Shown here: piece after piece, positions 5,501 through 54,612 of the stretch
Position numbering within the stretch: position 1 is the first letter of the stretch
How the letters are laid out: each line of letters starts with the position of its first letter
Source: Candidatus Aenigmatarchaeota archaeon
GTDB taxonomy: Archaea > Aenigmatarchaeota > Aenigmatarchaeia > CG10238-14
Reading direction: 5' to 3'
DNA: 64,000 bases
Assembly (NCBI GenBank): GCA_044343545.1
Contig: JAWBZR010000003.1
Coordinates: forward strand, 10,320 to 74,319
The notes under the pieces: generated by a model
What the model was told of the DNA's origin: nothing
Seen by the model: the letters and a program-made list of their open reading frames with translations, nothing else
The model's database searches: none
Position numbers and translations under genes: made by a program

Positions 5501-5578
5501 CTTTATAAAACCTGTTGAGAAACATTAATCGATTATGGAAGAAAATTAAAAAATTGATTTTCTAAATTATTTTACAAA

Positions 5579-5651
5579 GCCTCAGTAGCTCAGTTGGTAG
5601 AGTACCTGCATGGTAAGCAGGTGGTCGCGGGTTCGATCCCCGCCTGAGGCT
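5579..5651 (+). tRNA. tRNA-Thr (GGT)
   Basis: Acceptor gcctcag/ctgaggc; D arm tagctcagttggtagagt; anticodon stem cctgc/gcagg with loop atGGTaa; T arm gcggg-ttcgatc-cccgc. Confidence 0.85.
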
Positions 5652-12078: not shown

Positions 12079-12084
12079 ACGGTT

Positions 12085-12729: not shown

Positions 12730-12733
12730 ATAT

Positions 12734-13867
12734 ATGTGGGTTCAAAAATATCAACCAAAAAAATTAGATGAAATTGTTGGTCAAGATCTCGCAAAGGAAA
12801 AATTTTTAAAATGGATTGAAAATTGGAAACCTGGAAGTAAGCCTGCCCTTCTATATGGACCTATAGGTGTTGGAAAGACTAGCATGATTTATGCTTACGC
12901 TAAAGAAAAAAACTTGGATGTGATTGAATTAAATGCATCGGATTATAGAACTGCAAAAAAAATTAACGAAGTTATAGGTGCTTCTTTAAAACAAAAATCT
13001 ATATTTAAAAAAGGTAAAATATTTTTGATAGATGAAATAGATGGATTAACATTGGAAGATAAAGGTGGAATTAACGAAATTCTCAAATTAATTAAAGATT
13101 CGCAACATCCAATAGTTTTTATAGCAAACGATGTTTGGAATAAAAAAATTTCGAAAATAAAAGAAATTTGCGTTGAAATTCCTTTTAATTCCATATCTTA
13201 TTGGGACATATTAAAGATTTTAAGAAAAATATGTGAAAGTGAGAAAATAAAACATGATGAAGAGATACTAAAATATATAGCAAAAATATCTTCAGGTGAT
13301 TTGAGGTCAGCTATTAACGATTTGGAAGCCATTTCCTCTGGGAAAAATTCGATAACCATAAAAGATGCTTCCAACATAAGCTTTAGAGAAAGAGAAACAG
13401 AAATTTTTGATGCACTGAAAATTATATTTAAAACTAATAATGTATCGGCTTCGAAAACATCCATACAAAATATTGATAGAGATCTTGAAGAAATTTTTTG
13501 GTGGATAGAAGAAAATATAGCAAATGAATATGAAAAAATAGAAGAAATCGCCTCAGCATATAATATGCTTTCTATTGCCGACATATACCTAAACAGATCA
13601 AAAAGTAAAAGAAATTACAAGCTAATGAAATATTTTATCGATTTTATGACTGCAGGTATCTCTCTATCAAAAAAACAACAATATAAAAAATTTGTAAAAT
13701 ACCAATATCCTACTATGATAAAATTTTTGAGCTTAACAAAAGATTCAAGAAAGGAAGAAAAGGAAAATATACTTGAATTATCTAAAAAATTGCATTGCTC
13801 GACAAGAAAAATAAAGACATATTACCTTCCATTTTTAAAATTTTTATCTCGGGACGATAAAGGATGA
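12734..13867 (+). CDS. rfcL: replication factor C large subunit
   Basis: MWVQKYQPKKLDEIVGQD (RFC box II). Walker A LYGPIGVGKTS. IFLIDEIDG (Walker B). Shortened C-terminal region. Confidence 0.8.
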   Translation: MWVQKYQPKKLDEIVGQDLAKEKFLKWIENWKPGSKPALLYGPIGVGKTSMIYAYAKEKNLDVIELNASDYRTAKKINEVIGASLKQKSIFKKGKIFLIDEIDGLTLEDKGGINEILKLIKDSQHPIVFIANDVWNKKISKIKEICVEIPFNSISYWDILKILRKICESEKIKHDEEILKYIAKISSGDLRSAINDLEAISSGKNSITIKDASNISFRERETEIFDALKIIFKTNNVSASKTSIQNIDRDLEEIFWWIEENIANEYEKIEEIASAYNMLSIADIYLNRSKSKRNYKLMKYFIDFMTAGISLSKKQQYKKFVKYQYPTMIKFLSLTKDSRKEEKENILELSKKLHCSTRKIKTYYLPFLKFLSRDDKG

Positions 13868-16915: not shown

Positions 16916-17535
16916 ATCTTTACACCCAACTTTTTAAGGTCTAACAATAACTGTTTTGGATTCTTATAAACTATGCCATTTATTCCCAACTTGATTGCTG
17001 CCTCTACGTTTTTCTTCTTGTCATCTATGAATATGCATTCTTTCGGTTTTGCATTGATTCTTTCAAGCATCATGATGTAAATTTCTTTATTAGGTTTAGA
17101 TATTCCAACATCGCAAGAATTTATAACTACATCAAAATATTTGTAAAAATCATATTTTTTGTTAATCTCTTCGAGCCATGCATTATTGTTTGTCAAAAGT
17201 CCAAGCTTATAATTTTTTTTAAGATTTTTTATGATGTTTATCACGGGCTCTATAGGCTTGTTTAAGGATATTATTTCTTTTTTTAATTCAGTTTCATCAA
17301 AATCGTAACCCGTTACCTTTTTTATCTTCTTCCAAAACACACTTTCACTTATTTTACCCAAATTAAATTCTTCTACAAGCATCCTTATTTTTTTTCTCTT
17401 TTTAAAATTAAGCAAAAGTGAAAGGATCTTTATCTTTGAAATTTTTGAATTAAACAAAGCTTCTAACAAAAGTTGATTTGTTGTGCCGGGATAAAAACAA
17501 ACACCGCCAAAATCAAATATTATCGCTTTTATCAT
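16912..17535 (-). CDS. HAD-superfamily hydrolase
   Basis: Motif I MIKAIIFDFGGV (DxD nucleophile). Motif III/IV region FIDDKKKNVEAA. Overlaps mre11 (23 nt) and rad50 (4 nt), so it sits inside the mre11-rad50 operon. Confidence 0.7.
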   Translation of the reverse strand: MIKAIIFDFGGVCFYPGTTNQLLLEALFNSKISKIKILSLLLNFKKRKKIRMLVEEFNLGKISESVFWKKIKKVTGYDFDETELKKEIISLNKPIEPVINIIKNLKKNYKLGLLTNNNAWLEEINKKYDFYKYFDVVINSCDVGISKPNKEIYIMMLERINAKPKECIFIDDKKKNVEAAIKLGINGIVYKNPKQLLLDLKKLGVKI

Positions 17536-18730
17536 CCACCAATCCCTCCAAAATAAGTTTCTTAGCTTTCTCTAAATCTCCGCCAGACATGTAACTGTAT
17601 AATTGCAAAAAATCAATTTTATCATCAAAACCTACTTTTCTTATATTTTCTTCCAAAATTTTTATTCCCAATTCTTCAATTGAAATTTTAGATTCTCTCG
17701 CTTCTCTAAGAATTTGAACCTTTTTTTCTAGAAACTCTCCAGTCAACTCTTTAGAATATTTTATTATAAATTCATTAGAATATTCGTCTATTATATTTTT
17801 CATATCCTTATCAACGCTCAAAAGTCTGTTGTATTTAAGTTTTATTTTGAACAGAGGTTTCTTCTGATAGTTTCCTCTATGCTTTTCTATAACTTCCTTT
17901 ATTTGCTCTCCTATACTTCTCTCCTCTTTTATTTCAATTTCTTCATATATGAACTTTCTTTGACCCTTTATAGGTTCAAATTCCACTTTTTCTTCTGGAA
18001 GCAAGAGTTTATAAATGCCCTTTTCAGCCTGCTCCTCTTTTTTAGCTTGCGTGACGATTGTACTACCAGCAAGGATTATTTTCTTATCACCGATTTTTTC
18101 AAACCTCGAAGAATGAATATGACCGTTAATTATGAGATCAAAACCTTCCGGCAAAGAGTCGATTGTGAGAGTGGACGGTTCTGCAGGCGAATATATAAAT
18201 GGCACAATGTTTTGATGAAGCAAGAGTATATTATAGCATCCTTCTTTAGGTTGAGGTGACCATTCTTCTAAAATTTGTGAAGCATATCTTTCTGGCACAC
18301 CAGACATGCCTTGAATTGCCACTTTTATGCCATTTTTTTCGAAAATCAGACCATTCTTGTGTAAGTGATATAGCAATCCTGCTGACTCTAGAAGTTGTAC
18401 AGCATTATATTGTTCCCTTCCGACCCTTTCATGCGTTCCGTGTAGAGCTATGACAGGTATACCTTCGTGTTGTTTGACAACATTCTTTTTAATAGATTCG
18501 AACAATCTTGTCTCGGTTTTAACGGTTGATGGTATTGAAAATATTTGAACGGCCCTTGTTAATATATCTGGCTTTGGAAATCTGTTATCAAATATATCAC
18601 CACACACTATTATTAGGTCGCTATCTAGGCTTTGTTCCATTGCTTGTCTTGCCTGCTCAAAACTATCGTTTTCAAGTGGTGTATTTAGGGCAAAACCCAG
18701 ATGTAAATCAGAAAATATGGAAATTTTCAT
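17513..18730 (-). CDS. mre11: Mre11 nuclease (calcineurin-like phosphoesterase)
   Basis: Phosphoesterase motifs I-IV: ISIFSDLHLG, CGDIFD, GTHE, and GHIH in INGHIHSS. Confidence 0.85.
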   Translation of the reverse strand: MKISIFSDLHLGFALNTPLENDSFEQARQAMEQSLDSDLIIVCGDIFDNRFPKPDILTRAVQIFSIPSTVKTETRLFESIKKNVVKQHEGIPVIALHGTHERVGREQYNAVQLLESAGLLYHLHKNGLIFEKNGIKVAIQGMSGVPERYASQILEEWSPQPKEGCYNILLLHQNIVPFIYSPAEPSTLTIDSLPEGFDLIINGHIHSSRFEKIGDKKIILAGSTIVTQAKKEEQAEKGIYKLLLPEEKVEFEPIKGQRKFIYEEIEIKEERSIGEQIKEVIEKHRGNYQKKPLFKIKLKYNRLLSVDKDMKNIIDEYSNEFIIKYSKELTGEFLEKKVQILREARESKISIEELGIKILEENIRKVGFDDKIDFLQLYSYMSGGDLEKAKKLILEGLVDDKSDNI

Positions 18731-18805: not shown

Positions 18806-19720
18806 ATGTTAAAAGATTTCTTAAGTATAAATGACATAAAAAGGGAAGAAATTTTGGATTTGTTCAAATTAACAGACAAGGTGAAAAAACATCCATACTC
18901 TGACGTGCTGAAAAATAAAATTTTTTGCTTATATTTTGAAAAACCTTCAATCAAAACAAAAATATCTTTTGAATCTGGAATAAAACAGTTGGGTGGCGAA
19001 GTTGTTTTTATCGAGAAAAATCAAATGCTGAAAGAATTACTTGAAGATTTAATAAGAACTTTGGAAAGATATGTTCATGTAATAGTTGCAAAGGATTTTT
19101 CTCAAAAAGATTTGGAATTAATGTCCAAGATGTCAAAAATAAACATTATTAATGCCTCATCTGACTTGGAAGACCCCTGTCAAGCTTTAGCAGATATTTA
19201 TACAATAAGAGAAAAATTCGGTACATTTAAAGATATAAAATTAGCTTTTTTAGGTAATGGATGTGATAATGTCTTACATTCGCTTCTCTTAGCTGCGACA
19301 AAACTTGGTATACATGTAAATATAGCTTGTCCTGAAGGATTTGAACCTAATAAGGAAGTGTTAGAAAGAGCACAAACTCAAGCAAAAATAAGTGGAAGTA
19401 AGGTTTCGGTGGTGAGAGATCCTCAAAAAGCTGTGAAAGATGCTCACGTAATTTATACTAGTAACCAAGAAGGAAAAACTACAAAAAAACTCTTACCGAA
19501 ATATCGCATTACACAAAAACTTTTGGATAAAGTTGGAAGTGCTCTTTTCATGCACTCTTTACCTGCTTATAGAGGGGAAGAAGTTGATGAAAAAGTTATA
19601 GATGATATTAGGTCGATAGTTTTTGAGCAAGCAGAAAATAGATTGCATGTACAAAAAGCATTGATTCTTAAGATATTGGGTTTGGATAAAATTTATAATT
19701 TAAAATTTTTGATGGATTGA
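18806..19720 (+). CDS. aspartate/ornithine carbamoyltransferase-family protein with substituted catalytic motifs
   Basis: ATCase/OTCase fold landmarks are present (DPCQALADIYTIREKFG; LAFLGNGCDNVLHSLLLAATKLG; HSLPAYRGEEV). However STRTR is SIKTK, HPxQ is DPCQ, HCLP is HSLP and SMG is SNQ. Start moved to internal ATG at 18806. Confidence 0.55.
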   Translation: MLKDFLSINDIKREEILDLFKLTDKVKKHPYSDVLKNKIFCLYFEKPSIKTKISFESGIKQLGGEVVFIEKNQMLKELLEDLIRTLERYVHVIVAKDFSQKDLELMSKMSKINIINASSDLEDPCQALADIYTIREKFGTFKDIKLAFLGNGCDNVLHSLLLAATKLGIHVNIACPEGFEPNKEVLERAQTQAKISGSKVSVVRDPQKAVKDAHVIYTSNQEGKTTKKLLPKYRITQKLLDKVGSALFMHSLPAYRGEEVDEKVIDDIRSIVFEQAENRLHVQKALILKILGLDKIYNLKFLMD

Positions 19721-20725
19721 AATTGGTGTAGCTAGAGTTTCTTCATCCACGTAAAGTTTTTCATCCATCACAACCTCGCCTTCTACTATTGGCTTGGGTT
19801 CTTTCACAGCCTCTATTCTCAAAAAACTTGAACAGTACCAATCTTTTCCACTCTCAAACTGGATATGTTTAAATAAAGGTGTAATTTCTATTGGATACAT
19901 TTCATCTGAGGGATAAATGCTAAACCTTCTCTTTATGTCTGTGATGACGAAACCCATTTCCAGGAGCATTTTTTCAACCTCATACCACTTTTTTCTTGAT
20001 GCTTCAAGAGTTGTCAAGCCAAAATAACCAGAGGCTCCTATACCATTTAAAGCTGAGACTCCACGAGACAAGAAAAGTTTCAATCCTTCCAATGCTTCTA
20101 CAGGGTCTGTAATAAAAACATCAAATTTTCTTTTAAATTCTTTAGGTAATTCTTTTTGAACGTCATAAACAAAAGCTTCCAAATTTAGAGATAGTTTTTT
20201 TGAAACCTGGTTTATAAAATCTATAATTCTTTTATCAACATCTACAACGACTATTTTTTGAGGCAAACCTGTTAATGAAAGAGCTATACTGAGCAGATCA
20301 TCATCGCCTATTATAAATATATTTCCGTGAATATCACCTCTTTGGCTAATAAACTCTACTCTCCTTATCACATCCTCAACTCTCATAGGGTCTTGATCAT
20401 ACTCTTCTTTTCCATTTGGTCTACCTTTTACTATCTTTTTAAATTTTTGAAAAATTTTCTTATAAACACCTCTAATAGCTATTCCGCTTACACAATTCTT
20501 ACAATCTACACTTGTTTTCAAAAAATTTTTTGCAATTTCTCTACCTTTTTTTGTCAAAGAAACCGTGTTTCTATTTATGTCTACAATCCCTTTAGTTTTC
20601 ATCTCTTCCATTTTTTCGATAAATTCTTTTATGGAAGCATCCTGCTTACTTAGAATTGAAAAATAATCAGTTTCTCCCAATAAGATATTCTGTATTATTT
20701 GTGCTTCTATTCTATCCATTATCAT
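19700..20725 (-). CDS. bpsA: BpsA-like aminopropyltransferase (DUF43; branched-chain polyamine synthase family)
   Basis: N-terminal wHTH-like region plus a Rossmann-like catalytic domain with the characteristic GDDDLLS motif (NIFIIGDDDLLSIALS). Adjacent to speH. Confidence 0.55.
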   Translation of the reverse strand: MIMDRIEAQIIQNILLGETDYFSILSKQDASIKEFIEKMEEMKTKGIVDINRNTVSLTKKGREIAKNFLKTSVDCKNCVSGIAIRGVYKKIFQKFKKIVKGRPNGKEEYDQDPMRVEDVIRRVEFISQRGDIHGNIFIIGDDDLLSIALSLTGLPQKIVVVDVDKRIIDFINQVSKKLSLNLEAFVYDVQKELPKEFKRKFDVFITDPVEALEGLKLFLSRGVSALNGIGASGYFGLTTLEASRKKWYEVEKMLLEMGFVITDIKRRFSIYPSDEMYPIEITPLFKHIQFESGKDWYCSSFLRIEAVKEPKPIVEGEVVMDEKLYVDEETLATPISIHQKF

Positions 20726-31116: not shown

Positions 31117-33438
31117 TTAAATATTTTTAAATCTAGAATGTCTCCAACCTTTACCTACTATATAGCCACTTTTTTTCAGTCGTGGATAATAAAACCATAA
31201 TAATATTGCTAAAAATATCAAGGCCAATGCTATGGCCGTCCATTTGAAAAATGTAGCTACTGTTAAACCTGTAATTTCTCTCTTTTCTTGCAGTGTTGTC
31301 GTAGTAGAAACAGGTGTTGTTGTTATACTCTCCTTGACTTGCAAATACATCGTTTTGGCATAAGTTCTCGTGCCATATTCAGATTTTGAAGGAAATCTAA
31401 AGAAAATTTTGTAAGTGTAAATCTTTGCATTTTCAGGTATATGAATTTGCATCCTCATAATCTTTTCTTGTTTTGGCTGCAAAACATCGATTTCCTTTGG
31501 CTCGAACGCATACCATCTAACATCGAAGCCTTCACTATCAACTAAAGGATAGATATCATAAATTGGATAATCTAATGGATTGTAGAATTTTATTTCGATT
31601 GAAACTTTTTCGCCTTGTAAGAGCTCCACTTTGCTTGGCAGAGTGATGTTAATATCACCTTGCTCTCTAAAAATTAATGTGGTTGTCGTTCCTTCGCCAA
31701 CCCTCCCTCTCGAATATTCGTAAGCTAGCTCGTAAGAAATCACATACGATTTCGATAACTGATTATTATTTTCATTCCTTTCAAACACACTATTTTGTTG
31801 ATCGACTATTGCTTTGATTTCATGATGTCCTTTGGGTAAATTTTGAATCTCTAAATTTACTACATATTGCTGGTTTGCATCGAGAGATGGAATGTTTTTA
31901 CTCTCAAGCAGCGTTGAATCAAACAAAACAACAAGATTAAAGTTTCTTGCAATGCCACTTCCTATGTTTTTGGCCGTGATCCTTACGTTTAGTTTTCCTC
32001 CTTCAGTTGGCTCATCCAAAAAATTTATTGATTCTATTGTTAAATCTGGCAAACCTATCAAAAAACCTCTATCATATATATAATCATAATTACCATCTGC
32101 GTCTATGTCTATAGCATACACCCCATATTCTTTCATAAACACATTAGTTATCATTCCTCTACTAGGATCCCAATATTTTTCATAAATTCCATCCTTACCC
32201 AAATCTACCAAAAATTGTCTTGAATTATCGCCATACACGTTTATTGGCAACAAATTATAATCTCCGATGAATGGTTGTGTGGGGAGGATGTACTCGTTAT
32301 TTAATAACCAATTTACGGAATTCTTGAACATCAACTCAACATCGTCTGTCCAATAGATCGGCTCCGCTATGCCAAAAAAAACTATCCTTGCTGAAGTGAT
32401 ATTATTATTTAACAACAAAGTTCCTGGCTCTGCGTAAGCTATAACAGCATAGTTGCTTGAGCTGGTTAAAGAAGCTGCGACAGATAAAGGTGAGCGAAAC
32501 AGCTCCACGTTTAAAACTGGTTGATTGTTAATTATATGCGCTCTTACCCTTGCATTTAATTGATAACCGTGAAGCATTGTTGAATTATCCACTATAGTTA
32601 TGTAAGTGGGGTTGCTCGAAAAAACACTACCAATAGCTCCTGGATGGACCCAACCAAAATCATCTGGATACACAGAATCTATGACCAAAGTGGGTTTACT
32701 ATTAACAGGCAAAGAAGCGACAAAACTGTCCAGATGCTCGCTTGCATACACATTCGAAGGTCTTCCTGCTATTATTATTGCTGAAAAAGAATTAAAGTCA
32801 TAATTTTTATAATTAGAGTTGTCTATTAGCATTACATCATGATGCATGTCTTTCAATATTCTATGAATTCTGTATTCGTGCACATAATCTAAATCGGTTG
32901 AGTTTTTCACTATTAAAGCAATGTTTGCTGCTTGAGTTAGAGGTAAAAACATCAAAAGAAGCATCAAAATCTTACCTTTTTTTGTACGCATAAACATCAA
33001 GATGGCTAAAAGGATCAAGGGCAATAAAAGAAAGTAGTAAGGTGGATTGCTTGATTTTTTTTCACCTGAAGCTATTATTATTATTTCTGACTGCAAGGCA
33101 ACCGGAATTTCACCTTCTTTTGTGTAGGTGACTACCACGCCTCCCTCGTATATTCCAGGTTTATCAACAATTAAAGTAAAGTTTTCTTGTCTCAATTCTC
33201 CCGGTTTTAATTCAATCTTTTTCGAAATGCGAATTTTGTCTGTAATATTTCCTATGGGAGTAAAGCTCACGTTGACGGTTTCGTTGTTATTATTTTTCAC
33301 TTCTATGAAACCATGCCAACTGTTGGTTTGCGTTAAATTTATTCTTGCAATCATCCTTGGCGGTCTTACATAAACTTCTAAAGCGTAAACAAAAGATATG
33401 CTTAAAAGTAGTAATAGGAGGATTAATTTCCATCTCAT
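31117..33438 (-). CDS. large secreted/surface protein, apparently two signal-peptide-bearing modules fused in frame
   Basis: Start moved to MRWKLILLLLLLSISFVYA (signal peptide). Residues ~135-160 of this CDS (165-190 of the track ORF) look like a C-terminal TM + basic tail (YYFLLLPLILLAILMFMRTKKGK). A second signal-peptide-like segment ILMLLLMFLPLTQA follows. C-terminus is Thr-rich + TM (FFKWTAIALALIFLAILLWFYY) + basic tail. Confidence 0.5.
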   Translation of the reverse strand: MRWKLILLLLLLSISFVYALEVYVRPPRMIARINLTQTNSWHGFIEVKNNNNETVNVSFTPIGNITDKIRISKKIELKPGELRQENFTLIVDKPGIYEGGVVVTYTKEGEIPVALQSEIIIIASGEKKSSNPPYYFLLLPLILLAILMFMRTKKGKILMLLLMFLPLTQAANIALIVKNSTDLDYVHEYRIHRILKDMHHDVMLIDNSNYKNYDFNSFSAIIIAGRPSNVYASEHLDSFVASLPVNSKPTLVIDSVYPDDFGWVHPGAIGSVFSSNPTYITIVDNSTMLHGYQLNARVRAHIINNQPVLNVELFRSPLSVAASLTSSSNYAVIAYAEPGTLLLNNNITSARIVFFGIAEPIYWTDDVELMFKNSVNWLLNNEYILPTQPFIGDYNLLPINVYGDNSRQFLVDLGKDGIYEKYWDPSRGMITNVFMKEYGVYAIDIDADGNYDYIYDRGFLIGLPDLTIESINFLDEPTEGGKLNVRITAKNIGSGIARNFNLVVLFDSTLLESKNIPSLDANQQYVVNLEIQNLPKGHHEIKAIVDQQNSVFERNENNNQLSKSYVISYELAYEYSRGRVGEGTTTTLIFREQGDINITLPSKVELLQGEKVSIEIKFYNPLDYPIYDIYPLVDSEGFDVRWYAFEPKEIDVLQPKQEKIMRMQIHIPENAKIYTYKIFFRFPSKSEYGTRTYAKTMYLQVKESITTTPVSTTTTLQEKREITGLTVATFFKWTAIALALIFLAILLWFYYPRLKKSGYIVGKGWRHSRFKNI

Positions 33439-33540
33439 ATTCTTCACAACTGATGTATAGTAAAAAATTAAAGTATTTAAAATTTGATTTAACGCTATTC
33501 GATAGAAAAATTTTTTCATTAACATTTGCATATTTCATAC

Positions 33541-44905: not shown

Positions 44906-46219
44906 TTAAGGGTTAATTTGAAAAAGATACAGAGGAACTCCTCTCCTCGCATGCTCAATTGAAAAAGGAGTTCCTAACATCATAGCTTCTTCAGGAGTTA
45001 ATCTTCGTACCGAAACACTGTAACCACCAATCTTTCTTATAGCTGTAGGTAATTCACATTCAAAAAGAATTATACTAAAATTTTTATAATCAGGATAATT
45101 TATGAGCAAACCGTTTAATGGCAGACCTCTTGCAGTTATTCCCAGAACAGCATCAGTAGCTTCTATTGCATCATTAACATAGTCAGGTAATATTCCTGCA
45201 GCATAACCTCCAAGTACGGAACTAGTATTAAGTACATATACCTTTGAATAATCTGCTGCTACAACACGTTCAGACAATAAACTTGATAAACCACTTCCGC
45301 TGGGATTTACTGAGAATAATAGTATATTTCTTGGGAGCACTTCACCATTATGAAAAGGTCGTCTTAATAATACATAATTACCTTCACCGTATATTGCCGC
45401 CGCATGAGGTTGTTGTCTTAACATTCTTAACACATCTGGGTTGGGTTCCAAACCATAATAGAATAATTTTGGTGGTTTTTTAATTCCTGCCAACTCAAAT
45501 AATGGTCCTACTTTCATTGAATATCCTGGGCCTACATTCACTATAACATCAGAACCATCAAGTGCTGTTAATAATAATCTTTCAACCTCATCTATCTCTA
45601 CCTGACTTATTTCTAAATGACTATATCTATATAAATATCTTCCACTTGAAAAGAATACATCATCACCTAATCGAAGTATACCTTTTCCTCTTGCTACAGC
45701 ATTTAATATATCTGTAGGGTCTGGATACATTGTTGCTAGACTGATGCCTATAAAAACTCCATCAAAAATTGTCACAGGTCTTCCTGATGATGTTGTTCCA
45801 ACGAAAGCGTTTCTTAAATCTAATAATGGCACAGGTAAAAGTCCGTAAAGAAATTCACACAATTTTATTTCATCTTCTTCAATTTCTCGTAGATATCTAC
45901 TTTTTAAATCACCAACAAAACAACCTCTTCCTTCCATCTCTTGAAGTATTCTATATGTTTCTGTTGAAGTTAAGAGTGATTCCCGTAAAGTTTCAAGACC
46001 TTTTGGGCTGCAACCGTTACTAATAACTGAAAAATTATACATTCCCATTAAATGAGCAGCATCAAGAGGATATTGTTGCTCAAATTGTGCGGCCAATCTT
46101 TCACATACTGTTGCTTGTGGAGGTAATGGCGTTGGTGGCGGTGTTGGTGTTTCTGCACAAGCAATCCCTGCTGCAACTAAAGATGCTAATGAAAACATTA
46201 TTATCCCTCTGTTTCTCAT
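44906..46219 (-). CDS. secreted hypothetical protein, compositionally atypical (Ala/Gly/Leu/Arg-rich; higher G+C)
   Basis: Signal MRNRGIIMFSLASLVAAGIACA then PTPPPTPLPP. No recognised motif. Confidence 0.4.
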   Translation of the reverse strand: MRNRGIIMFSLASLVAAGIACAETPTPPPTPLPPQATVCERLAAQFEQQYPLDAAHLMGMYNFSVISNGCSPKGLETLRESLLTSTETYRILQEMEGRGCFVGDLKSRYLREIEEDEIKLCEFLYGLLPVPLLDLRNAFVGTTSSGRPVTIFDGVFIGISLATMYPDPTDILNAVARGKGILRLGDDVFFSSGRYLYRYSHLEISQVEIDEVERLLLTALDGSDVIVNVGPGYSMKVGPLFELAGIKKPPKLFYYGLEPNPDVLRMLRQQPHAAAIYGEGNYVLLRRPFHNGEVLPRNILLFSVNPSGSGLSSLLSERVVAADYSKVYVLNTSSVLGGYAAGILPDYVNDAIEATDAVLGITARGLPLNGLLINYPDYKNFSIILFECELPTAIRKIGGYSVSVRRLTPEEAMMLGTPFSIEHARRGVPLYLFQINP

Positions 46220-46640: not shown

Positions 46641-46896
46641 TTTATCTACAATACTTTAAGAAGTTGATACAGTTATTTATAGTTGATTGATTAATGAGTT
46701 CTAGTCTTCATATTATAGATGTATAATCATCTCTTCATCATTAACATATCTAATTTTAACAAATCTAAAATGTTGTATTGGAAGATTATATTTTCCCATC
46801 AACTCTTAAAGACACTGTCTTCCTCTTCGAATATAGTTATACTGAGGATTTGTATGAAAAAATTAATATTTAAAAACATTATAGAATAAGATAATT

Positions 46897-47793
46897 ATGA
46901 AAAGCAAAATAATTTTGTTCCTTTTTTTGCTTTTTACTTTGAAAATTGCTTATGCGGCTGACAAGAATGTTTATACTAGCATTTATTTACTTAATCTTGG
47001 AAAGTTTGATATATCAACAGGCTCATTCACTGCTGACTTTTATCTCAATTTTGATTGTGAAAACGAATGCCCGCAAATAGATTTTGAATTTATGAATGGC
47101 AGAGCAAACAGTTTAGATAAATTAATTGACACGCCAAAATCAAAAACATACAGAATACAAGCTAATCTTGTTAGCCATATAGATTTGAAAAAATTTCCGT
47201 TTGATAATCAAACATTAAAGATAATAATAGAGGATAAAACCAAAACTATAGATGAACTTGTATTTGTGGCAAAAAATGAATATAGTGGTATTGATCCTTC
47301 CATTGTTTTCATAGGTTGGGAAATGGGTCAATGGAAAGCTTATTCAACAGAGCATTATTATGATGTGTATAACGAAACTTATTCGCAATATGTATTTGAA
47401 ATACCTATTTACAGAATAACAATAAATGCTGTTTTCAAAACATTTTTGCCAATAATATTCATTATATTGATAATGCTTTCCAGTTTTGTATTAGACCCGG
47501 ATAAGATAACTACAAGATTGGGAATGGTCGGCTCTGCTTTAGTTGCATCTGTAATGTATCATGTCTCTATAGCAAATCAAATACCACCTGTAAGCTATTT
47601 AACATTTGTGGACAAATTCATGATTTTGACTTATTTTATAACACTATTGAGTTTTGGATTTAACGTGTTTTTGCTCGAGCTAAATGAAGAAAAAAAGAAA
47701 AAGCTTGTAAATAAATTGCACAAATATACAGAATTTACTATGTTTATAGTTGTTCCGATTCTTTATGTTTTGTTATTCCTGCTGTTTTTGTGA
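46897..47793 (+). CDS. pentameric ligand-gated ion channel (Cys-loop/pLGIC superfamily) homolog
   Basis: Signal peptide + ~170-aa extracellular domain + 4 TM. Pre-M1 YRITINAVFKTFLPIIFIILIML. M2 TRLGMVGSALVASVMYHVSI. M2-M3 loop NQIPPVSYLTFVDKFMILTYF (cf. GABA-A LPKVSYVKAIDIWM). M3, loop and M4 follow in canonical order. Confidence 0.6.
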   Translation: MKSKIILFLFLLFTLKIAYAADKNVYTSIYLLNLGKFDISTGSFTADFYLNFDCENECPQIDFEFMNGRANSLDKLIDTPKSKTYRIQANLVSHIDLKKFPFDNQTLKIIIEDKTKTIDELVFVAKNEYSGIDPSIVFIGWEMGQWKAYSTEHYYDVYNETYSQYVFEIPIYRITINAVFKTFLPIIFIILIMLSSFVLDPDKITTRLGMVGSALVASVMYHVSIANQIPPVSYLTFVDKFMILTYFITLLSFGFNVFLLELNEEKKKKLVNKLHKYTEFTMFIVVPILYVLLFLLFL

Positions 47794-47816: not shown

Positions 47817-48395
47817 TTAATCATCCAAATTAAATGTTTTTAGAAATCTTTTCTTCACAAATTTTGGATATTTTTTTATGTATTCTTTCATTCTTTTCTT
47901 GTCAATTTTTAGTTTAGAAATTATTTTCTTATCAAGTGGTTGCTTGAAATAAATTAAATCTATTAGTGTTTTTTCTTTGTCTGAAACTGGAATAAGAAAA
48001 TTGTCGTAGTTGATTAGCTCGTATCCGAAAAAATATTTTTTGTTTATTCTTCTCACTATGACATTTGTGCCAAAAACCTCTCTCTTCCCACTTCTTATTT
48101 TTTTAGGTGTTACTATTATTGTGTTTGTTTCTTGCTCCCAAAGATTATGTATGCTTAAAGCAGCTTGCAAACCTATATAAGATGGTCTTATGGCAAACAC
48201 AATTAATGTAGGATCATCGTATAAAGTGTAAAATCCTTTTTCAATTCTTTTGATTTTGTCTTTTTTCAACAAATAATTTAACAAGACATTTGCATAATTT
48301 TCGTTTCTTGTCAAGAGTATTATATCTCTAGTACTCACCACAGGATTTTTCTTGAATAAATCCATTATTCGTGACAAATATTTTATTTTGCCCAT
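47817..48395 (-). CDS. AbiEi-like (COG5340) antitoxin/transcriptional regulator
   Basis: N-terminal wHTH-like KYLSRIMDLFKKNPVVSTRDIILLT plus a C-terminal domain. Overlaps the upstream AbiEii-like gene by 13 nt. Confidence 0.45.
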   Translation of the reverse strand: MGKIKYLSRIMDLFKKNPVVSTRDIILLTRNENYANVLLNYLLKKDKIKRIEKGFYTLYDDPTLIVFAIRPSYIGLQAALSIHNLWEQETNTIIVTPKKIRSGKREVFGTNVIVRRINKKYFFGYELINYDNFLIPVSDKEKTLIDLIYFKQPLDKKIISKLKIDKKRMKEYIKKYPKFVKKRFLKTFNLDD

Positions 48396-49039
48396 ATTTC
48401 TATCGCCTTTATTAAATCTTCCAGCTTTGGAACGGCACCTGAAATTATCAAAGTAGGTAAATTCTTTTCGTCTAACGGTGGTTTGAAATTTTTTAAAAGG
48501 TTGTTTATCAATTTTGAAATTTCTTTTTTTTCTTTTACGTAATTTAGCAAAAAGTATATATCGTAAAGATCTCTTACTTTTTGTCTTTTTTCATATGCCT
48601 TTATTTTTTCCTTAATTATTTCTTCTGGAGTTAAAGTGTAAACAATAATAAATGTTCCGTCAGATAATTCAAACTCTTTTGAAACATAGTTTTTTATGTT
48701 TTCAAAAACAACTTCGAATCTAATTATTGCATTGTTGTAGGCAAATGCTGAATATATGGAATTTTCTGTTTCTTTGAATTTTTGCGTTTGGAAGCCAATC
48801 TTTTCTAGATTTTCCCTGAATTTTTTTAATTGAGTTGAATTTTTTAGTTTTTTCGGTAAATATACATCTATATCTTCTGAAAATCTATTGCCAGAATAAC
48901 ACCTCCATATTGCTGTGCCGCCGTGTATGATAGGAGTAGTTAATGTTTTGTACATCTCAATTACCAATAAATCTTGGGCTAAAGCTATGTCTTTATGATG
49001 CTTTTTTTTGAGTTTTTTTTCTATTGGAAGTATGACCAT
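48383..49039 (-). CDS. AbiEii/DUF1814-family nucleotidyltransferase (type IV TA toxin)
   Basis: IHGGTAIWRCYSGNRFSEDIDVYLP matches the GGTAL...R.SEDIDF signature of AbiEii. Confidence 0.6.
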   Translation of the reverse strand: MVILPIEKKLKKKHHKDIALAQDLLVIEMYKTLTTPIIHGGTAIWRCYSGNRFSEDIDVYLPKKLKNSTQLKKFRENLEKIGFQTQKFKETENSIYSAFAYNNAIIRFEVVFENIKNYVSKEFELSDGTFIIVYTLTPEEIIKEKIKAYEKRQKVRDLYDIYFLLNYVKEKKEISKLINNLLKNFKPPLDEKNLPTLIISGAVPKLEDLIKAIEIWAK

Positions 49040-49463
49040 AAATATAAATTAACCATACTTATATATAAATATAATTTTGGTTGATTTAATCTAAAATTTT
49101 ATAAAATAATTTTAGAGTTTTTGGACTCCAAAACCTTAAATTAAAATACAGTTAAATTTTAATCATACCAAAATTAAATTGTTTTATTAGATTTTAATTT
49201 TTTGAATGTTTTTACATTTCATTTTTTTGGCTTGTAAGTGTATTTCTGCTTTTTTATTTTAACTTTTACTTGGTAGAATTTGTCGTTGAAGAAACATATT
49301 AAAAAATTTTATAATTTTTTAAGAATTTCCAACATTCCTTTATATCTTTTTATTATTCTAGAAATTTCCTTATCTATTTCATTTAAAGGCACTTTCATCG
49401 TATCTATTCTATCATCAGGATATATTATTTATAATGGTACCTCTATTACAGATTCTAACTATT

Positions 49464-50606
49464 TTATAATGCTTTCTGTTTTTTATAAAATTCATGTTTT
49501 TTATATGAAATAAATTTTTTAAAATTATGAATGCCGTCATCATTACTTGTAATATTTTTAGATTTAAAAAATTTCATAGTTTTTCTTAATTTTGTTAACT
49601 CAAATAATTTAATAAATCCACCTTTTTTAAGAGATTGGTACCAAATTTTAACTTTAAAATTTGTATCATAAAACATCCAAAATTGTAATAAAAAATTATA
49701 TATTATATAATCAAATATCCACATCAACTTATCTTTTATTAATAAATTTTTATTACAAAAAATTTTTTTTGCTATATAAATATTCGATAAAAAACTGATA
49801 ATAAAAGTGAAAAATATCATACCAAGTTTTTTATCAAGTTTTGAACAAAATTTGAAAAAAATCCTAAACATTTTTACATGTTTTTCAGAAAAATATAAAG
49901 GATTACCATCTATTTTATATACTTTATTGCCATAATTTAAAATTAATAGTAATTTGTAACCAAACTGATAAGAATCTATAAATGTTTGATTAATTACATT
50001 TTTTAATCTTTTTTTAAGATAATAATTTGAATTATGAAATATAATAACTTTATTTAAGTGCTGCGGTTTTTCTTTAGTAAAGTAATGCCAATGTATTATA
50101 CCTATTGGAGTTACATAATTTTTATTGAAAAATCTTATTAATATAGATTGAAATCTTTTTGACGGATAATCTTCTTTTCTTACTATTGTAAATACATTAG
50201 ATTTAAATGATTTATTTTTGCTTAAATTGTATAAACTTTTATCATTTATATTTTCATCATCTTCTATAATAAATATCCATCTATATTTACATAAAGAAAA
50301 TCCTATATAATAAAAAAATACAGACGTCCCTAAAGGAGGAAAATTAAATATTCTTATTTTATTTTCTTTTTCTAAATGTTTTTTTATTTCATAATAAAAT
50401 TCTAATTTGCTATTATCTAAAATTATTATTTCATCAAAATATTTTTTTAATTTTTTAGCTAATTTTATTACATTTTCCGGTTTATTCATCGAAATAATAA
50501 TTGCAGATACTTTATTCATAAAGATACCTCGATATACTTTCATTATATAAACTTTTAACTTCATCTGATGACAAACTTTTATTATAAATTCTAATTTCAC
50601 CGACAA
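49464..50606 (-). CDS. glycosyltransferase family 2-like protein (start uncertain)
   Basis: VSAIIISMNKPENV..FDEIIILDNS resembles the GT2 N-terminal Rossmann segment. Extremely AT-rich. Likely true start at internal MNKVSAII. Confidence 0.4.
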   Translation of the reverse strand: MSVKLEFIIKVCHQMKLKVYIMKVYRGIFMNKVSAIIISMNKPENVIKLAKKLKKYFDEIIILDNSKLEFYYEIKKHLEKENKIRIFNFPPLGTSVFFYYIGFSLCKYRWIFIIEDDENINDKSLYNLSKNKSFKSNVFTIVRKEDYPSKRFQSILIRFFNKNYVTPIGIIHWHYFTKEKPQHLNKVIIFHNSNYYLKKRLKNVINQTFIDSYQFGYKLLLILNYGNKVYKIDGNPLYFSEKHVKMFRIFFKFCSKLDKKLGMIFFTFIISFLSNIYIAKKIFCNKNLLIKDKLMWIFDYIIYNFLLQFWMFYDTNFKVKIWYQSLKKGGFIKLFELTKLRKTMKFFKSKNITSNDDGIHNFKKFISYKKHEFYKKQKAL

Positions 50607-52878
50607 TTATTTTTCCAAAATAACCAACCGGCTCTTTTGCAATAGTAATAGGATCTTTAAGATTTATTACATCATAAAAATACATATATTCATTATTTAA
50701 TTCACCATCAACATAAATTTTTAAAAATGTTTTATTTTTAGAAATAGTAAACATATGCCAAGAATTTTCAATTCTAGAAGGTGAAGTATTAAAATCAAAA
50801 ATATGCCAAACATAACTTGAATTTTGCAAATGAAAACTTATTCTAGTATAATTATTATTAATTTGTAAACTCCATTCTCTATCTTTTCTTATTATGTTTT
50901 GAATTTTGTTATGTGTTGTACCATTGAGTTTTAGCCAAATAGATATTGTAAATGTTTCACCTGTTTCTAAAGAATCAGAATGTGGAATATATATATATGA
51001 ATTATTGCCGTTTAAATATAAAATGCAACTATTAAGTTTTGTTTTTAACCACACGCCATTATTTATTTTTCCATTATTTCCATAACCCGAATAATCATAA
51101 ATCATATCACCGGAACATTCGTCTATTTTCCAAAAACCTAATAAGTTGTCATGATTTTCAGTATATAGATTTACTTTGTATATAGTAATATTTTCTAATT
51201 TTAAAACCGGTGTGAAATATTTAAAAGATGTATTAATATATGTTTTTATTGTGTCATAATAAAATTGATTAACCAAAATATAATTATTTTCAAATATTAT
51301 AAAGCTAATATTGTTTTTTTCAAAAATTTCTCTTGGAAAATTTTGATTATTAAGATTTTCAAGAATTTTATGATATACATCCGATTTTGGAATATTAATT
51401 TTAGTATCATATAAATTGGAAATATAAAGAGGAATGTTGCTCATAAATGATTGTCGCCAATCAACAATACCATAAACTGGAATCCAAATATAATTTTGAT
51501 TTGGATTTTGCTTTATAAATTCAAAAACACTATCATAATATTGTGGTATACTCACTGGATTTAAAAGCTTAGAATATATTTTTGTTTGAACATAGAAATA
51601 GTAACAAACTGGCGGTAATATAATTACTAATGATAAAATGAGTATAAAAATAGGATATTTTTTTGTATAATAAATTAATAATATGGAAACTAAAATAAAA
51701 CCAAAAGAAAAAACTATATTTAAATTAGCAAGAGCATTTATAAATGGGGAAAAGATAATATTAGGTAAGATTTTAGAAATATTTAATAATATTTTAGAAA
51801 TAAAATTAGAATTATGAAACCCGTTCATAAAAAACATAAAAATAATTATCGTCAAAAAAATACCTAAAGAAATTTCATACAACCAATTATTGTTTTTATT
51901 TAAAAAAATAATAGTTGACCAAAATACAAATGCAAATGGAAGGTAAACTAAAAAATTTGAAGGAAAAACAATTTGTTCTTTGTATATTATACTATATTTT
52001 GTATTTATTTCTTCTTCTTTAAATGAGAATGTTAATATGTTGATAAAAGGCTGGCCCCAATAATCAATTTTAGATTTTGTAAATTTTATCATTTCTTGAG
52101 TTGGATTAATATAAGTAAAGTATATAATATCAAAAAAAATATAACAACTAGATATAATAATTGGGAGGAAGAACAATAAAAAATATTTAAAATTTTTTTT
52201 GTAAATAACTATATTTAAATAGAGAAAAAATACGAAAGTATATGCCAGAATAAAAAATGGTGGATTTGCTACCAAAAAAAATCCCACAAAGCCAAGTAAA
52301 ATATTTTCGAAAATCAATTTTTTTATGTCAAAATTATTAATAAGTTTAAAATAAATATTGATCATAAGAGAAAAAAATATCGGCGCAAAAATATACGGTA
52401 TTTGAAATTGAGGCAAAAAATAATTCTTAATAAGACCTGCATTTGTATATATATTAAAAGCGTAAAACAAAGAAAGTAGATATATTATTATATTAACAAA
52501 ATTAGATTTATTTTTTGAAAATATCAAATTACTTATTTTATTTAAAGACAATATGGAAGAGCAAAAAGATAAATAATGATAAATTATAATTGATAGTTTC
52601 CATGATAAAATTTTATTTCTTAAAAAAAGAAATATTATTTCAACAATAATATAAGATGGGAAGAACCAAAAACCAAAAGGTGATTTAGACATTCTTAAAA
52701 ATTCAGAAAAAGAGATAGCTGCCGATCCATTATCTACAAAACCGCTATATCCTTCTTTTAATAAGTATCTACATATTAATAAAGAAAATAAAATTGGAAT
52801 GAAAAAATAAAACAATAATGTTTTTAAAATTTTTTTAAAATTTAACTTTTTACAATTTGTTTCCATTGGAATTGTCAC
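50512..52878 (-). CDS. large polytopic membrane protein with C-terminal LamG/concanavalin-A-like jelly-roll domain
   Basis: ~14 TM helices, then WKIDECSGDMIYDYSGYGNNGKINNGVWL..FTISIWLKL..GEIRIYNKSLSSDEVKSLY (Laminin_G_3-type pattern). Overlaps neighbouring GT genes. Confidence 0.5.
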   Translation of the reverse strand: MTIPMETNCKKLNFKKILKTLLFYFFIPILFSLLICRYLLKEGYSGFVDNGSAAISFSEFLRMSKSPFGFWFFPSYIIVEIIFLFLRNKILSWKLSIIIYHYLSFCSSILSLNKISNLIFSKNKSNFVNIIIYLLSLFYAFNIYTNAGLIKNYFLPQFQIPYIFAPIFFSLMINIYFKLINNFDIKKLIFENILLGFVGFFLVANPPFFILAYTFVFFLYLNIVIYKKNFKYFLLFFLPIIISSCYIFFDIIYFTYINPTQEMIKFTKSKIDYWGQPFINILTFSFKEEEINTKYSIIYKEQIVFPSNFLVYLPFAFVFWSTIIFLNKNNNWLYEISLGIFLTIIIFMFFMNGFHNSNFISKILLNISKILPNIIFSPFINALANLNIVFSFGFILVSILLIYYTKKYPIFILILSLVIILPPVCYYFYVQTKIYSKLLNPVSIPQYYDSVFEFIKQNPNQNYIWIPVYGIVDWRQSFMSNIPLYISNLYDTKINIPKSDVYHKILENLNNQNFPREIFEKNNISFIIFENNYILVNQFYYDTIKTYINTSFKYFTPVLKLENITIYKVNLYTENHDNLLGFWKIDECSGDMIYDYSGYGNNGKINNGVWLKTKLNSCILYLNGNNSYIYIPHSDSLETGETFTISIWLKLNGTTHNKIQNIIRKDREWSLQINNNYTRISFHLQNSSYVWHIFDFNTSPSRIENSWHMFTISKNKTFLKIYVDGELNNEYMYFYDVINLKDPITIAKEPVGYFGKIIVGEIRIYNKSLSSDEVKSLYNESISRYLYE

Positions 52879-53794
52879 CTTTTTTAATTTTTAAAAGTAA
52901 ATTAAATGCATCTATAGTTCCAGAAAAATATGCTTTTATTAATATCAACTTTTTTTTTAAACTAAAATCAGATTTAAGTAAAATATTTATAATATAGAAT
53001 AACAAAATTATCCAATTAAAAATTGAAACAAAAATAATAAATTCGTATAAATTCGAATATTTAAAATGAAAAATTATTCTGTTTCTAGCAGTAAAATATG
53101 TTCTACTATATGTTTCAAAACCTGTAAATTTTGTTCTTTTAGCATTATGCCAAATTTTAGCGTCTGTATTACAAAAAATTCTAAATTTTGATTGTTTAAC
53201 TCTTTGACAAAAATCTGCTTCATCATAATGGATAGGGAATTCTTTATGATTTAATAATCCAACTTTATAAAAAACTTTCCTTCTTACCATAAAAGCATTT
53301 GGAAAATCGTCAGATGGTATTAATTTTTTTATTTTACCATTATCTATTTTATCTTTGTAGATAAAAAGTGTTGAAGATGTTACCATATTTCTTCTTATAC
53401 CAGCACACCAAATTCTTTTTGGATCAGAAAGATAATACATAGTTGGCCCTAATACTCCTATCATATTATCTTTTTCCATTGTTTTAACAAGTTCAAAAAT
53501 ACAATTCTTATCTATTACATTATCATCATCTATTAAAAAAACATAATCACCTACTGAATTTTTAATACCAATATTTCTAGAATTTGCCAAAAGAAGATTT
53601 TTTTTATTTCTAATAATTTTTACAGATGGATACTTTTTTCTTATTAAATCATATGTTCCATCAGTAGAGGCATCATCTATGACAATTATTTCTAATTTAT
53701 TTTTAGGATAATTACTATTTAATATTGATTCAATTAATGATAGTAGTTCGTTCTTACGGTTATAAGTCGGGATTACTACGGACACTTTTTTCAT
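52850..53794 (-). CDS. glycosyltransferase family 2
   Basis: VSVVIPTYNRKNEL; VIDDASTDGT; DxD FLIDDDN; C-terminal TM helices. Confidence 0.75.
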   Translation of the reverse strand: MKKVSVVIPTYNRKNELLSLIESILNSNYPKNKLEIIVIDDASTDGTYDLIRKKYPSVKIIRNKKNLLLANSRNIGIKNSVGDYVFLIDDDNVIDKNCIFELVKTMEKDNMIGVLGPTMYYLSDPKRIWCAGIRRNMVTSSTLFIYKDKIDNGKIKKLIPSDDFPNAFMVRRKVFYKVGLLNHKEFPIHYDEADFCQRVKQSKFRIFCNTDAKIWHNAKRTKFTGFETYSRTYFTARNRIIFHFKYSNLYEFIIFVSIFNWIILLFYIINILLKSDFSLKKKLILIKAYFSGTIDAFNLLLKIKKGDNSNGNKL

Positions 53795-54612
53795 AATTTC
53801 ACCTTACTCGCTAAAGAACCAAAGACAACGGAAAAATATTCCATTAACTTAAAAAAAATTAAACTACTAGCTAATATAGGCTTTGAATAAAATTTTTTAT
53901 TTTTTAAAAATATCGAAAATCTATAAAAAATACTTGTCTGCTTTTTTGCATAATCACCAAATTTATTTTTATAAACCGACAATGTTTTTCCATAATAGAA
54001 TTTCTTTTTCATCCACTTCAAAAAAGAAAAATTATATTCATTATGAATTATTTCACTGGAAATTCTGTAATTCACTTTATATCCTAACTTTTCTATTTTC
54101 TGTGGCAAAGTGTTTTCTTCAAAAAAAACAACACTTTCATCAAAACCATTGACTTTAATAACTAAATCTTTAGGAAAGAACCTTGCAGATTCTATAGGAG
54201 TATTAGCATAAAAACTTCTTTCAAAATCTCTTACTCTAACCCAGTATGATCTGCCTATAGATCTTTCTGGAATTATTATACCACCTATTTTTTCTTTTGA
54301 ACATAAATCAACACAATCTTTAATTACATTTTTTGTTAATTCCATATCAGAATCTATAAAAAGCAAATATTCACCTTTTGCTTTTTTAGCCCCAAAATTC
54401 TTCTGCTCACTCCTTTCAGATGCTTTGATCTGAAAAACTTTTCTAGTATATTTTCTAGCAATCTCCACAGTTCTATCCTTTGAAAACTTGTCTACAACGA
54501 TTATCTCAATATTCTTGTAGCTTTGATTCTTAACAGACTCTAAACATCTTTCTAAAGTCTTTTCAGAGTTAAAAGTTGGTATAATAACCGAAACTAGAGA
54601 ATCATTAAACAT
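53791..54612 (-). CDS. glycosyltransferase family 2
   Basis: VSVIIPTFNSEKTLERCL; IIVVDKFSKDRT; FIDSDM (DxD). Confidence 0.75.
   Translation of the reverse strand: MFNDSLVSVIIPTFNSEKTLERCLESVKNQSYKNIEIIVVDKFSKDRTVEIARKYTRKVFQIKASERSEQKNFGAKKAKGEYLLFIDSDMELTKNVIKDCVDLCSKEKIGGIIIPERSIGRSYWVRVRDFERSFYANTPIESARFFPKDLVIKVNGFDESVVFFEENTLPQKIEKLGYKVNYRISSEIIHNEYNFSFLKWMKKKFYYGKTLSVYKNKFGDYAKKQTSIFYRFSIFLKNKKFYSKPILASSLIFFKLMEYFSVVFGSLASKVKL

Follow-up and report, generated by a model that had tools for sequence, protein, structure and literature searches.

Four prokaryotic ion channels of the pentameric ligand-gated type (pLGICs) serve here for comparison, namely the proton-gated GLIC of Gloeobacter violaceus (PDB 3EAM, 2XQ3), sTeLIC of a Tevnia symbiont, which is activated at alkaline pH (6FL9, 9EX6), the Ca2+-modulated DeCLIC (6v4a), and ELIC of Dickeya, which is gated by primary amines and GABA, shows that a prokaryotic member can have an organic amine as its agonist, and carries a -1' Glu as well as an ectodomain of full size. 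The physiological role of prokaryotic pLGICs is a long-standing question, the known examples being sporadic and their natural ligands mostly undefined. For archaea, an inventory of pLGICs covers Methanosarcina, further Euryarchaeota and Thaumarchaeota, with a mention of Lokiarchaeota and without any DPANN member; these archaeal pLGICs are Cys-less Pro-loop receptors whose patchy occurrence was read as gene loss and lateral transfer (Jaiteh et al. 2016, PMC4795631). Here, a stretch of 64,000 nucleotides from a Candidatus Aenigmatarchaeota archaeon (assembly GCA_044343545.1, contig JAWBZR010000003.1, positions 10,320 to 74,319; the whole of this stretch is referred to as the window) was analysed, and the protein encoded at 46897..47793 on its + strand was found to be a genuine, functional-looking pLGIC of a compact subfamily. 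It represents an undescribed branch of a known family, and no new kind of system or mechanism.

Homology and predicted fold

When the protein was compared with all PDB chains by phmmer, a GLIC-GABAAR α1 chimera (E = 1.6e-13), sTeLIC (3.2e-13) and GLIC (~4e-11) were recovered, with residues 85-297 aligned and the sTeLIC alignment extending through M4. A profile built from 45 family members gave 7.8e-26 for the chimera and ~1e-24 for GLIC, and an hhalign comparison of the family with GLIC, for which a sequence identical to PDB 2XQ3 was used, reached a probability of 98.6% over 229 columns, the β1-β2 region included. The resemblance to pLGICs is far above chance.

The same conclusion was drawn from structure prediction. 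The AlphaFold2 (AF2) model, a monomer computed on the family alignment (pLDDT 88.6, pTM 0.77), consists of a β-domain (residues 24-173) followed by four helices, and a Foldseek search of the PDB with this model returned 1108 matches at E <= 1e-3, all of the 50 listed being pLGIC chains, headed by those of GLIC (TM 0.81-0.82, E = 6e-21). The pLGIC subunit fold, an extracellular β-sandwich joined to the M1-M4 four-helix bundle, is thus present in the model. The protein shares with GLIC the absence of an N-terminal helix and of Cys-loop cysteines, together with a very short M3-M4 loop. An earlier sequence-only reading of the window had proposed a pLGIC homologue at this locus and a structure-based comparison with GLIC, and this proposal is borne out at the levels of sequence, profile and predicted fold, the model superposing on GLIC at TM 0.81.

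Layout of the gene and of the encoded protein

The ATG-started open reading frame (ORF) of 298 amino acids (aa) that had been reported was recovered in the ORF listing of the window, and its features are as follows.

46641..46896, no strand: divergent intergenic region, presumed promoter site (sequence reading)
46897..47793, + strand: complete coding sequence, 298 aa and stop, for the subunit of a compact pLGIC or Pro-loop receptor (ORF, homology, AF2 model, dN/dS)
46897..46959, + strand: predicted signal peptide, aa 1-21, MKSKIILFLFLLFTLKIAYA, followed by AD (hydrophobicity, model, poor conservation)
46960..47415, + strand: extracellular β-sandwich domain, aa 22-173 (AF2 strands)
47056..47070, + strand: C54-x3-C58 pair in place of a long β2-β3 loop (family conservation)
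47194..47205, + strand: Pro-loop signature F100-P101-F102-D103, without flanking cysteines (hhalign)
47344..47391, + strand: β9-β10 hairpin (loop C), aa 150-165 (residue spectra of 76 orthologues)
47413..47484, + strand: pre-M1 Arg173, then the M1 helix (aa 175-196) and its kink Pro185 (hhalign, AF2, conservation)
47497..47580, + strand: pore helix M2, aa 201-228 (register from R207 = 0' and P230 = 23')
47581..47604, + strand: M2-M3 linker I229-P230-P231-V232-S233-Y234-L235-T236 (hhalign, conservation)
47605..47787, + strand: M3 (237-264), very short cytoplasmic M3-M4 turn (265-267) and M4 (268-297) (AF2)

Residues 1-21 form a hydrophobic signal-like segment that ends in AYA before AD (the Kyte-Doolittle hydrophobic stretch spans 3-23), is modelled by AF2 as a separate helix (residues 2-14) and is weakly conserved over the family (majority frequency 0.42); cleavage is predicted after residue 21. 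The ectodomain strands of the model lie at 24-38, 43-53, 63-65, 68-78, 82-92, 104-113, 122-125, 141-155 and 160-173, and both the Kyte-Doolittle profile and AF2 place the C-terminal helices at 175-196, 201-228, 237-264 and 268-297. The signal peptide and the four transmembrane segments of the sequence-only reading are hereby recovered, as are the strings that it had quoted for the pre-M1 segment (YRITINAVFKTFLPIIF, aa 172-188), for M2 (TRLGMVGSALVASVMYHVS, aa 206-224), for the M2-M3 linker (IPPVSYLTFVDKFM, aa 229-242) and for the cysteine pair (FDCENECPQ, aa 52-60). Its ectodomain of ~170 aa has to be corrected to ~152 aa (22-173) for the mature protein, the former figure being an overcount since the signal peptide had been included. 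Upstream of the gene, an A/T-rich TATA-like stretch, TTAATATTTAAAAA, is read ~27 nt ahead of the ATG; it is compatible with a leaderless archaeal transcript, yet it is no evidence for one in a region of 29% GC. A paralogue of the channel gene was not found in the window by tblastn, and a homomer is therefore assumed.

Signature residues and pore

The most conserved pLGIC residues have been listed by Jaiteh et al. (2016, PMC4795631, Table 1), and include, at the β6-β7 loop tip, the motif [F/Y]-P-x-D, whose Pro is 100% conserved in the superfamily. In the hhalign alignment with GLIC, the superfamily-conserved residues (7/7) are present in register. F100-P101-F102-D103 corresponds to GLIC Y119-P120-F121-D122, each position being at least 97% conserved over 76 orthologues, and P101 and D103 invariant in the family alignment. 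Also shared with GLIC are the β9 Trp (W141, GLIC W160), the M1 kink Pro (P185, GLIC P204) and the M2-M3 loop Pro (P230, GLIC P247), all three invariant in the family alignment, as well as the pre-M1 Arg (R173, GLIC R192), conserved there at 90% or more. Where Cys-loop receptors of the metazoan type have a disulfide-bonded Cys pair spaced by 13 residues around the β6-β7 loop, the window protein has H94 and K108, its sole cysteines being C54 and C58. With no cysteines on either side of this loop, the protein belongs with the Pro-loop receptors and outside the Cys-loop receptors sensu stricto, so that the earlier assignment to the Cys-loop superfamily stands as far as superfamily membership is concerned, and falls for the Cys-loop in its strict sense.

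The pore register follows from R207 at 0' and P230 at 23', the numbering that holds for GLIC and GABA-A (hhalign). On this register, M2 of the window protein carries D202 at -5', T205 at -2', T206 at -1', R207 at 0', G209 at 2' and S213 at 6', followed in its outer half by V216 at 9', M220 at 13', H222 at 15', V223 at 16' and N227 at 20'. Over the family, the pore reads T at -2' and -1', G/A/T at 2', S at 6', V/I at 9', M at 13', V/I at 16' and N at 20'. The basic 0' residue is Arg in 76/76 orthologues (a basic residue being found there in 79% of the superfamily), 8' Leu is invariant, and little or no variation is seen at the pore-lining positions 6', 13' and 20'. Asp occurs at -5' and -7', the pre-M2 segment being D(-5')-K-I-T-T-R(0'), and the -1'/-2' Glu of classical cation-selective members is absent.

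When the transmembrane domain (TMD) alone was searched, sTeLIC was the best match (E = 1.7e-5), followed by GABA-A α subunits, pH-gated chloride channels (pHCl), DeCLIC and GluCl, whereas nicotinic and 5-HT3 receptors were absent among the 60 matches listed. With sTeLIC the protein shares, at low overall identity, an uncharged -2' position and a similar M2-M3 linker (LPRLGYIT there and IPPVSYLT here), the pre-M2 segment being T-K-R there and T-T-R here; sTeLIC also has a full-length ectodomain and no CxxxC. Compared with GLIC, the window protein lacks the -2' Glu and the 11' His, has Arg at 0' (Asn in GLIC) and has a Tyr/His-rich loop C, and the large N-terminal domain of DeCLIC is absent from it. 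The anionic Cys-loop receptors (GABA-A α/β/ρ, GlyR, GluCl, pHCl) have a similar TMD sequence; going by their sequences and the chimera alignment, the linker xPxVSY and, ahead of M2, the pattern D(-5')...small uncharged -2'/-1'...R(0') resemble those of GABA-A and GlyR. Unlike those receptors, the present protein is prokaryotic and has no Cys-loop disulfide, long M3-M4 cytoplasmic domain, N-terminal helix or -2' Pro. Judged from its pore residues, the channel is possibly anionic or weakly selective.

Compact ectodomain and putative ligand site

From the β1 Tyr to the Pro of the Pro-loop, 72 residues are counted versus 98 in GLIC, and the ectodomain is ~25 residues shorter. The deletion is placed by hhalign mainly in the β2-β3 loop (gaps of 16+4+3 residues), in place of which the CxxxC pair is found. 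Of 76 family members, all have C54 and 75 have C58, and a disulfide between the two is predicted, which would staple the ectodomain at its membrane-distal end.

The binding loops were mapped onto GLIC via the alignment, a mapping that is approximate in β2-β5. Residues aligned to all six canonical loops are unchanged in 76/76 orthologues, these being E64/F65 in the loop A region, E112/D113/K114 in loop B, D47/F48/Y49 in loop D, Y85/R86 in loop E (R86 aligning with GLIC R105) and G131/D133 in loop F, while in loop C H153, Y155, Y158 and S163 are invariant and E160 and Y162 nearly so. By homology, loop C may contribute to ligand binding, and the clade-wide putative pocket of aromatic and charged residues suggests one conserved small-molecule agonist.

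The compact layout recurs in a shell of relatives at 27-49% identity, usually with C-x-x-P-C, as do the loop C pattern H-x-Y-x-x-[FY]-x-E-x-[YF]-S-[RQ]-Y and the M2 pattern 'F-H...P-P'. The short distance from β1 to the Pro-loop, the CxxxC pair, loop C and the M2 motif, which served as criteria of the compact layout, are combined in the window protein and in most of the shell representatives examined. The few named shell members belong to Chloroflexota, SAR202, Dehalococcoidia, an unclassified 'bacterium' and further Woese- and Nanoarchaeota. Given this recurrence of layout and motifs, the proteins are considered a compact pLGIC subfamily common to DPANN archaea and Chloroflexota.

Selection and distribution

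Against the closest orthologue, the ratio of nonsynonymous to synonymous substitution rates (dN/dS) is 0.049 for the whole gene, 0.01 for the TMD, 0.044 for the ectodomain and 0.59 for the signal peptide; purifying selection on the channel gene is strong. Conservation is highest in M2 and the M2-M3 linker, the linker topping the protein with a majority frequency of 0.93. Among 81 species-level sequences, pairwise identity is 60% at the median and never below 49%, compared with 19% between the window protein and GLIC.

A large protein database contains 534 relatives at E <= 1e-3, the top 120 of which are all ~300 aa long and 59-91% identical, those with a name being Aenigm-, Pace-, Woese- or Nanoarchaeota. 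In GTDB r232 (one genome per species), at least 168 encoding loci were found, a number which is a lower bound because only two exact peptide patterns were used for the scan; nearly all of the 80 loci listed bear DPANN labels, nearly always Woese-, Pace- or Nanoarchaeota. The statement that pLGICs are rare in archaea, made when the sequence alone had been read, consequently does not fit the DPANN lineage. Compared by inventory and not by sequence, the DPANN clade is dense (at least 168 species, at the median identity given above) where the catalogued archaeal pLGICs are patchy. In a library clustered at 50% identity the entire clade is one representative (P0025), beyond which 146 clusters are reached at E <= 1e-30, 944 at E <= 1e-10 and 3337 at E <= 1e-3. 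Orthologues are named 'hypothetical protein' at NCBI, and one UniRef entry has an automatic Neur_chan name.

The archaeal origin that had been presumed for the window is confirmed by its gene content (RFC, Rad50/Mre11/HerA, DUF460, an intron-type tRNA) and by its GatB, for which NCBI has a protein labelled 'Candidatus Aenigmatarchaeota' at 100% identity. An identical channel protein is encoded on contig JAWCDN010000011.1 of GCA_044343435.1, an Aenigmatarchaeota metagenome-assembled genome (MAG), with no Pfam family on record there. The locus is syntenic with that of an independent Aenigmatarchaeota MAG (L001), the channels being 91% and the neighbours 74-94% identical.

Some orthologue contigs have unexpected labels, namely L037 (DASPMU010000038.1), labelled 'Alphaproteobacteria bacterium' at 33.6% GC, and 'uncultured Methanosarcinales archaeon' contigs among L022, L040, L050, L058, L066-L068 and L079; these are probably mis-binned or generically labelled DPANN. 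In two Aenigmatarchaeota MAGs the orthologue appears as two ORFs (L002 5983-6876, 106+175 aa; L038 3714-4625, 108+193 aa). Their interpretation as second copies was rejected, each being a single gene split in two by frameshift, by assembly error or by lineage pseudogenisation. A Pacearchaeota MAG (JAWCQE01, JZ-2_201901_bins_146) has two full-length copies on separate contigs (L003 and L017), 71% and 72% identical to the window protein, and therefore some genomes may have paralogues and, possibly, heteromeric channels.

Proposed mode of action and its alternatives

On the homology, fold, signature residues, purifying selection and distribution described above, a pentamer, its gating, a ligand class and a selectivity can be proposed, and we consider it likely that the product of the gene is a functional subunit of a compact pLGIC of the prokaryotic type, operating in the following manner. 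Removal of the signal peptide would leave a mature protein of ~277 aa in the cytoplasmic membrane, with the ~152-aa β-sandwich facing outside and M1-M4 within the membrane, and, by homology, five such subunits would form a ring around a pore lined by M2. An agonist would be bound at the subunit interface by loops A-F, with the FPFD Pro-loop, the pre-M1 Arg173, Asp38 of the β1-β2 loop and the M2-M3 linker (IPPVSY) as the elements that would couple its binding to the pore. The 9' V/I, 13' M and 16' V/I residues would constitute a hydrophobic gate, and 6' S and 20' N polar rings. A small organic agonist is favoured over pure pH gating because all binding loops hold invariant aromatic or charged residues.

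Several observations weigh against this proposal or parts of it. The Pfam scores of the window protein are below the gathering scores, both for Neur_chan_LBD (PF02931; 20.0 bits, E = 5e-4, gathering score 26) and for Neur_chan_memb (PF02932; 15.3 bits, E = 0.024, gathering score 28.1), and the NCBIfam matches (LGIC_1, E = 8.8e-18; TIGR00860, 2e-13) are far under the curated full-length cut-offs. The 9' residue is Val (64) or Ile (8) among 76 orthologues and not the common Leu (75% in the superfamily). Assignment of loops A and D is approximate because of the 16+4+3 gaps in the β2-β5 alignment, the closest solved prokaryotic relatives, GLIC and sTeLIC, are pH-gated, which weakens the case for an organic agonist, and no conserved neighbour was found among ORFs within ±6 kb at 80 loci and the window, the best-shared family occurring at 6/81 loci and none with the window. 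The argument on selectivity is weak as well: the missing -1' Glu points away from classical cation channels, but sTeLIC, the closest TMD match, also lacks one, so that no ion selectivity is called from the sequence. As regards these points, 9' Leu is frequent in the superfamily and not defining, and a Pfam gathering score is a detection threshold and no biological feature; about 40% of the orthologues among the listed database matches carry precomputed PF02931 or PF02932 hits. Detection thus relies on the more sensitive tests because the Pfam hits are sub-threshold. Of the two outcomes that the sequence-only reading had named as speaking against a pLGIC, the lack of a significant Pfam hit was in part encountered, whereas the pLGIC fold, the absence of which was the other, is predicted.

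A channel of identical fold and assembly might instead be gated by protons or hydroxide and act as an environmental pH sensor with no organic agonist. The nearest solved prokaryotic relatives are of this type (GLIC acid, sTeLIC alkaline), and invariant titratable residues are available in H153, E64, E112, D113, D133 and H222 (M2 15'), whereas the proton-sensor positions of GLIC are not kept (E35 aligns with G42, and H235 at 11' with S218) and the Tyr-rich loop C with the invariant loop B/D/E residues resembles an agonist pocket; neither of these last two points is decisive, and we regard pure pH gating as rather unlikely. A decaying or non-channel remnant, such as a surface protein that keeps the fold and no longer conducts, would agree with the split ORFs of L002 and L038 and with the sub-threshold Pfam scores. 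It is nevertheless very improbable, given that the window gene is intact, that selection peaks at M2 and the M2-M3 linker (TMD dN/dS 0.01), that the gating-interface residues are complete and the 6', 13' and 20' pore positions invariant or nearly so, and that the split ORFs may be assembly frameshifts.

The provenance of the gene was weighed as well. Bacterial contamination or a mis-binned contig, to which relatives at 30-45% identity in Chloroflexota and the orthologue contig labelled Alphaproteobacteria might point, is scarcely credible: the gene lies mid-window (64 kb) amid archaeal RFC, Rad50/Mre11/HerA, DUF460, GatA/B and the intron-type tRNA, its locus is syntenic with that of the independent Aenigmatarchaeota MAG, nearly all of the 80 listed orthologue loci are labelled archaeal and mostly DPANN, and the 'Alphaproteobacteria' contig has a GC content of 33.6%. 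The chances appear even for lateral acquisition from Nanoarchaeota (Pace-/Woesearchaeales) within the compact subfamily of DPANN and Chloroflexota. In a neighbour-joining (NJ) tree, the window and L001 sequences fall among those of Pace-/Woesearchaeota, and none of 100 bootstraps makes them basal, the channel is 68-71% identical to Pacearchaeota orthologues whereas GatB reaches 59-67% outside its closest Aenigmatarchaeota relatives, gene neighbourhoods are wholly unconserved, and shell relatives occur in Chloroflexota, SAR202 and Dehalococcoidia. The NJ tree is, however, rough and rooted on the very long GLIC branch, the taxon names are MAG labels, some of them plainly wrong, strong constraint (dN/dS 0.05) may also yield high identity, no viral contig carrying the gene was found, and the gene GC (29.3%) is near that of the window (31.7%). 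Given the way in which the tree was built, the length of its outgroup branch and the use of MAG labels, these data are at most suggestive of transfer among DPANN lineages.

Returning to the agonist-gated subunit as the favoured reading, it could be extended to a lineage-wide DPANN chemoreceptor, in which the pocket would receive a specific extracellular metabolite (e.g. an amine, a polyamine or an amino acid supplied by the host or the community) and the gene would have spread laterally among DPANN lineages, and to or from Chloroflexota, for its usefulness. Binding would then directly change membrane potential or ion content in cells with almost no other signalling. This extension is speculative and, in our estimate, improbable; if it were true, the channel would be among the smallest natural pLGICs (~277 aa mature). 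The sensing of the host that the sequence-only reading had suggested is likewise speculative, and no conserved neighbourhood of the gene was found that would back it.

Significance

The notable point is the density and conservation of the channel in DPANN archaea. The occurrence of one orthologue, at a median identity of 60% and under strong purifying selection, in at least 168 genome-reduced archaeal species speaks for a role that is important and conserved and for one conserved ligand, and the question of the ligand becomes experimentally approachable with one protein and one putative pocket. The compact ectodomain and its putative CxxxC staple could make a minimal model channel. The novelty is limited in that the protein is a recognisable member of a well-known superfamily of which archaeal representatives, though not from DPANN, had already been catalogued. 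In the open-access literature, subscription-only papers being outside the search, no co-mention of ligand-gated ion channels or Cys-loop with DPANN was found and none of Neur_chan_LBD with archaea, and 'pentameric ligand-gated' together with any '-archaeota' was retrieved only from Jaiteh et al. (2016, PMC4795631).

Genomic neighbourhood and other genes of the window

An operon partner of the channel was rejected, as even the best-shared family of flanking ORFs (±6 kb) occurs at only 6/81 loci. Directly downstream and convergent, an AbiEi-like antitoxin of 192 aa and a toxin of 218 aa, an AbiEii nucleotidyltransferase, are encoded at 47817-49039(-), a pair that is common to the window and L001 only, at the same position. 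Its dS of 0.14-0.16 is ~7-fold lower than that of the channel gene (1.1), by which the pair was rejected as a channel partner and is taken to be an independent module; the low dS suggests a recent exchange of this toxin-antitoxin module between the two lineages. On the other side of the channel gene, a 437-aa ORF at 44906-46219(-) has an N-terminal signal-like segment, a Pro/Thr-rich linker and no Pfam hit. It is without a counterpart in L001, where a 361-aa ORF takes the syntenic position, and looks like a lineage-specific insertion or replacement. In a low-GC island at 48000-54600 (21-24% versus ~32% for the window), three glycosyltransferases of family 2 are encoded along with a multi-pass membrane protein of 788 aa that ends in a LamG/ConA-like domain (50512-52878); the island is likely a surface-glycan cluster acquired horizontally.

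Elsewhere in the window, genes for GatA/GatB, AsnRS/AspRS and DUF460 are found together with a DNA-repair and replication set at 1615-3714, 11122-13867 and 14534-18730, which comprises HerA (DUF87), the small and large subunits of RFC, a Rad50-like SMC ATPase of 793 aa and an Mre11-like phosphoesterase. A tRNA of 119 nt at 5382-5500(+), detected with Rfam over 71/71 model positions beside a tRNA-Thr at 5578-5652, is missed by ARAGORN in bacterial mode, which suggests an intron-containing archaeal tRNA. A branched-chain polyamine synthase is encoded at 19700-20725(-) (BpsA_C, E = 9e-85), from which it would appear that this cell makes branched polyamines. BpsA is typical of (hyper)thermophiles, and the gene hints at a hot environment of the host; if the host is thermophilic, the channel could offer structural work a minimal model that is thermostable. 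CARDB domains occur in two large proteins, secreted or at the surface, that are encoded at 5847-8051(-) (734 aa) and 31117-33531(-) (804 aa); one of them also has SdrD-B/SpaA-like domains, and both are possible adhesins relevant to an episymbiotic lifestyle.

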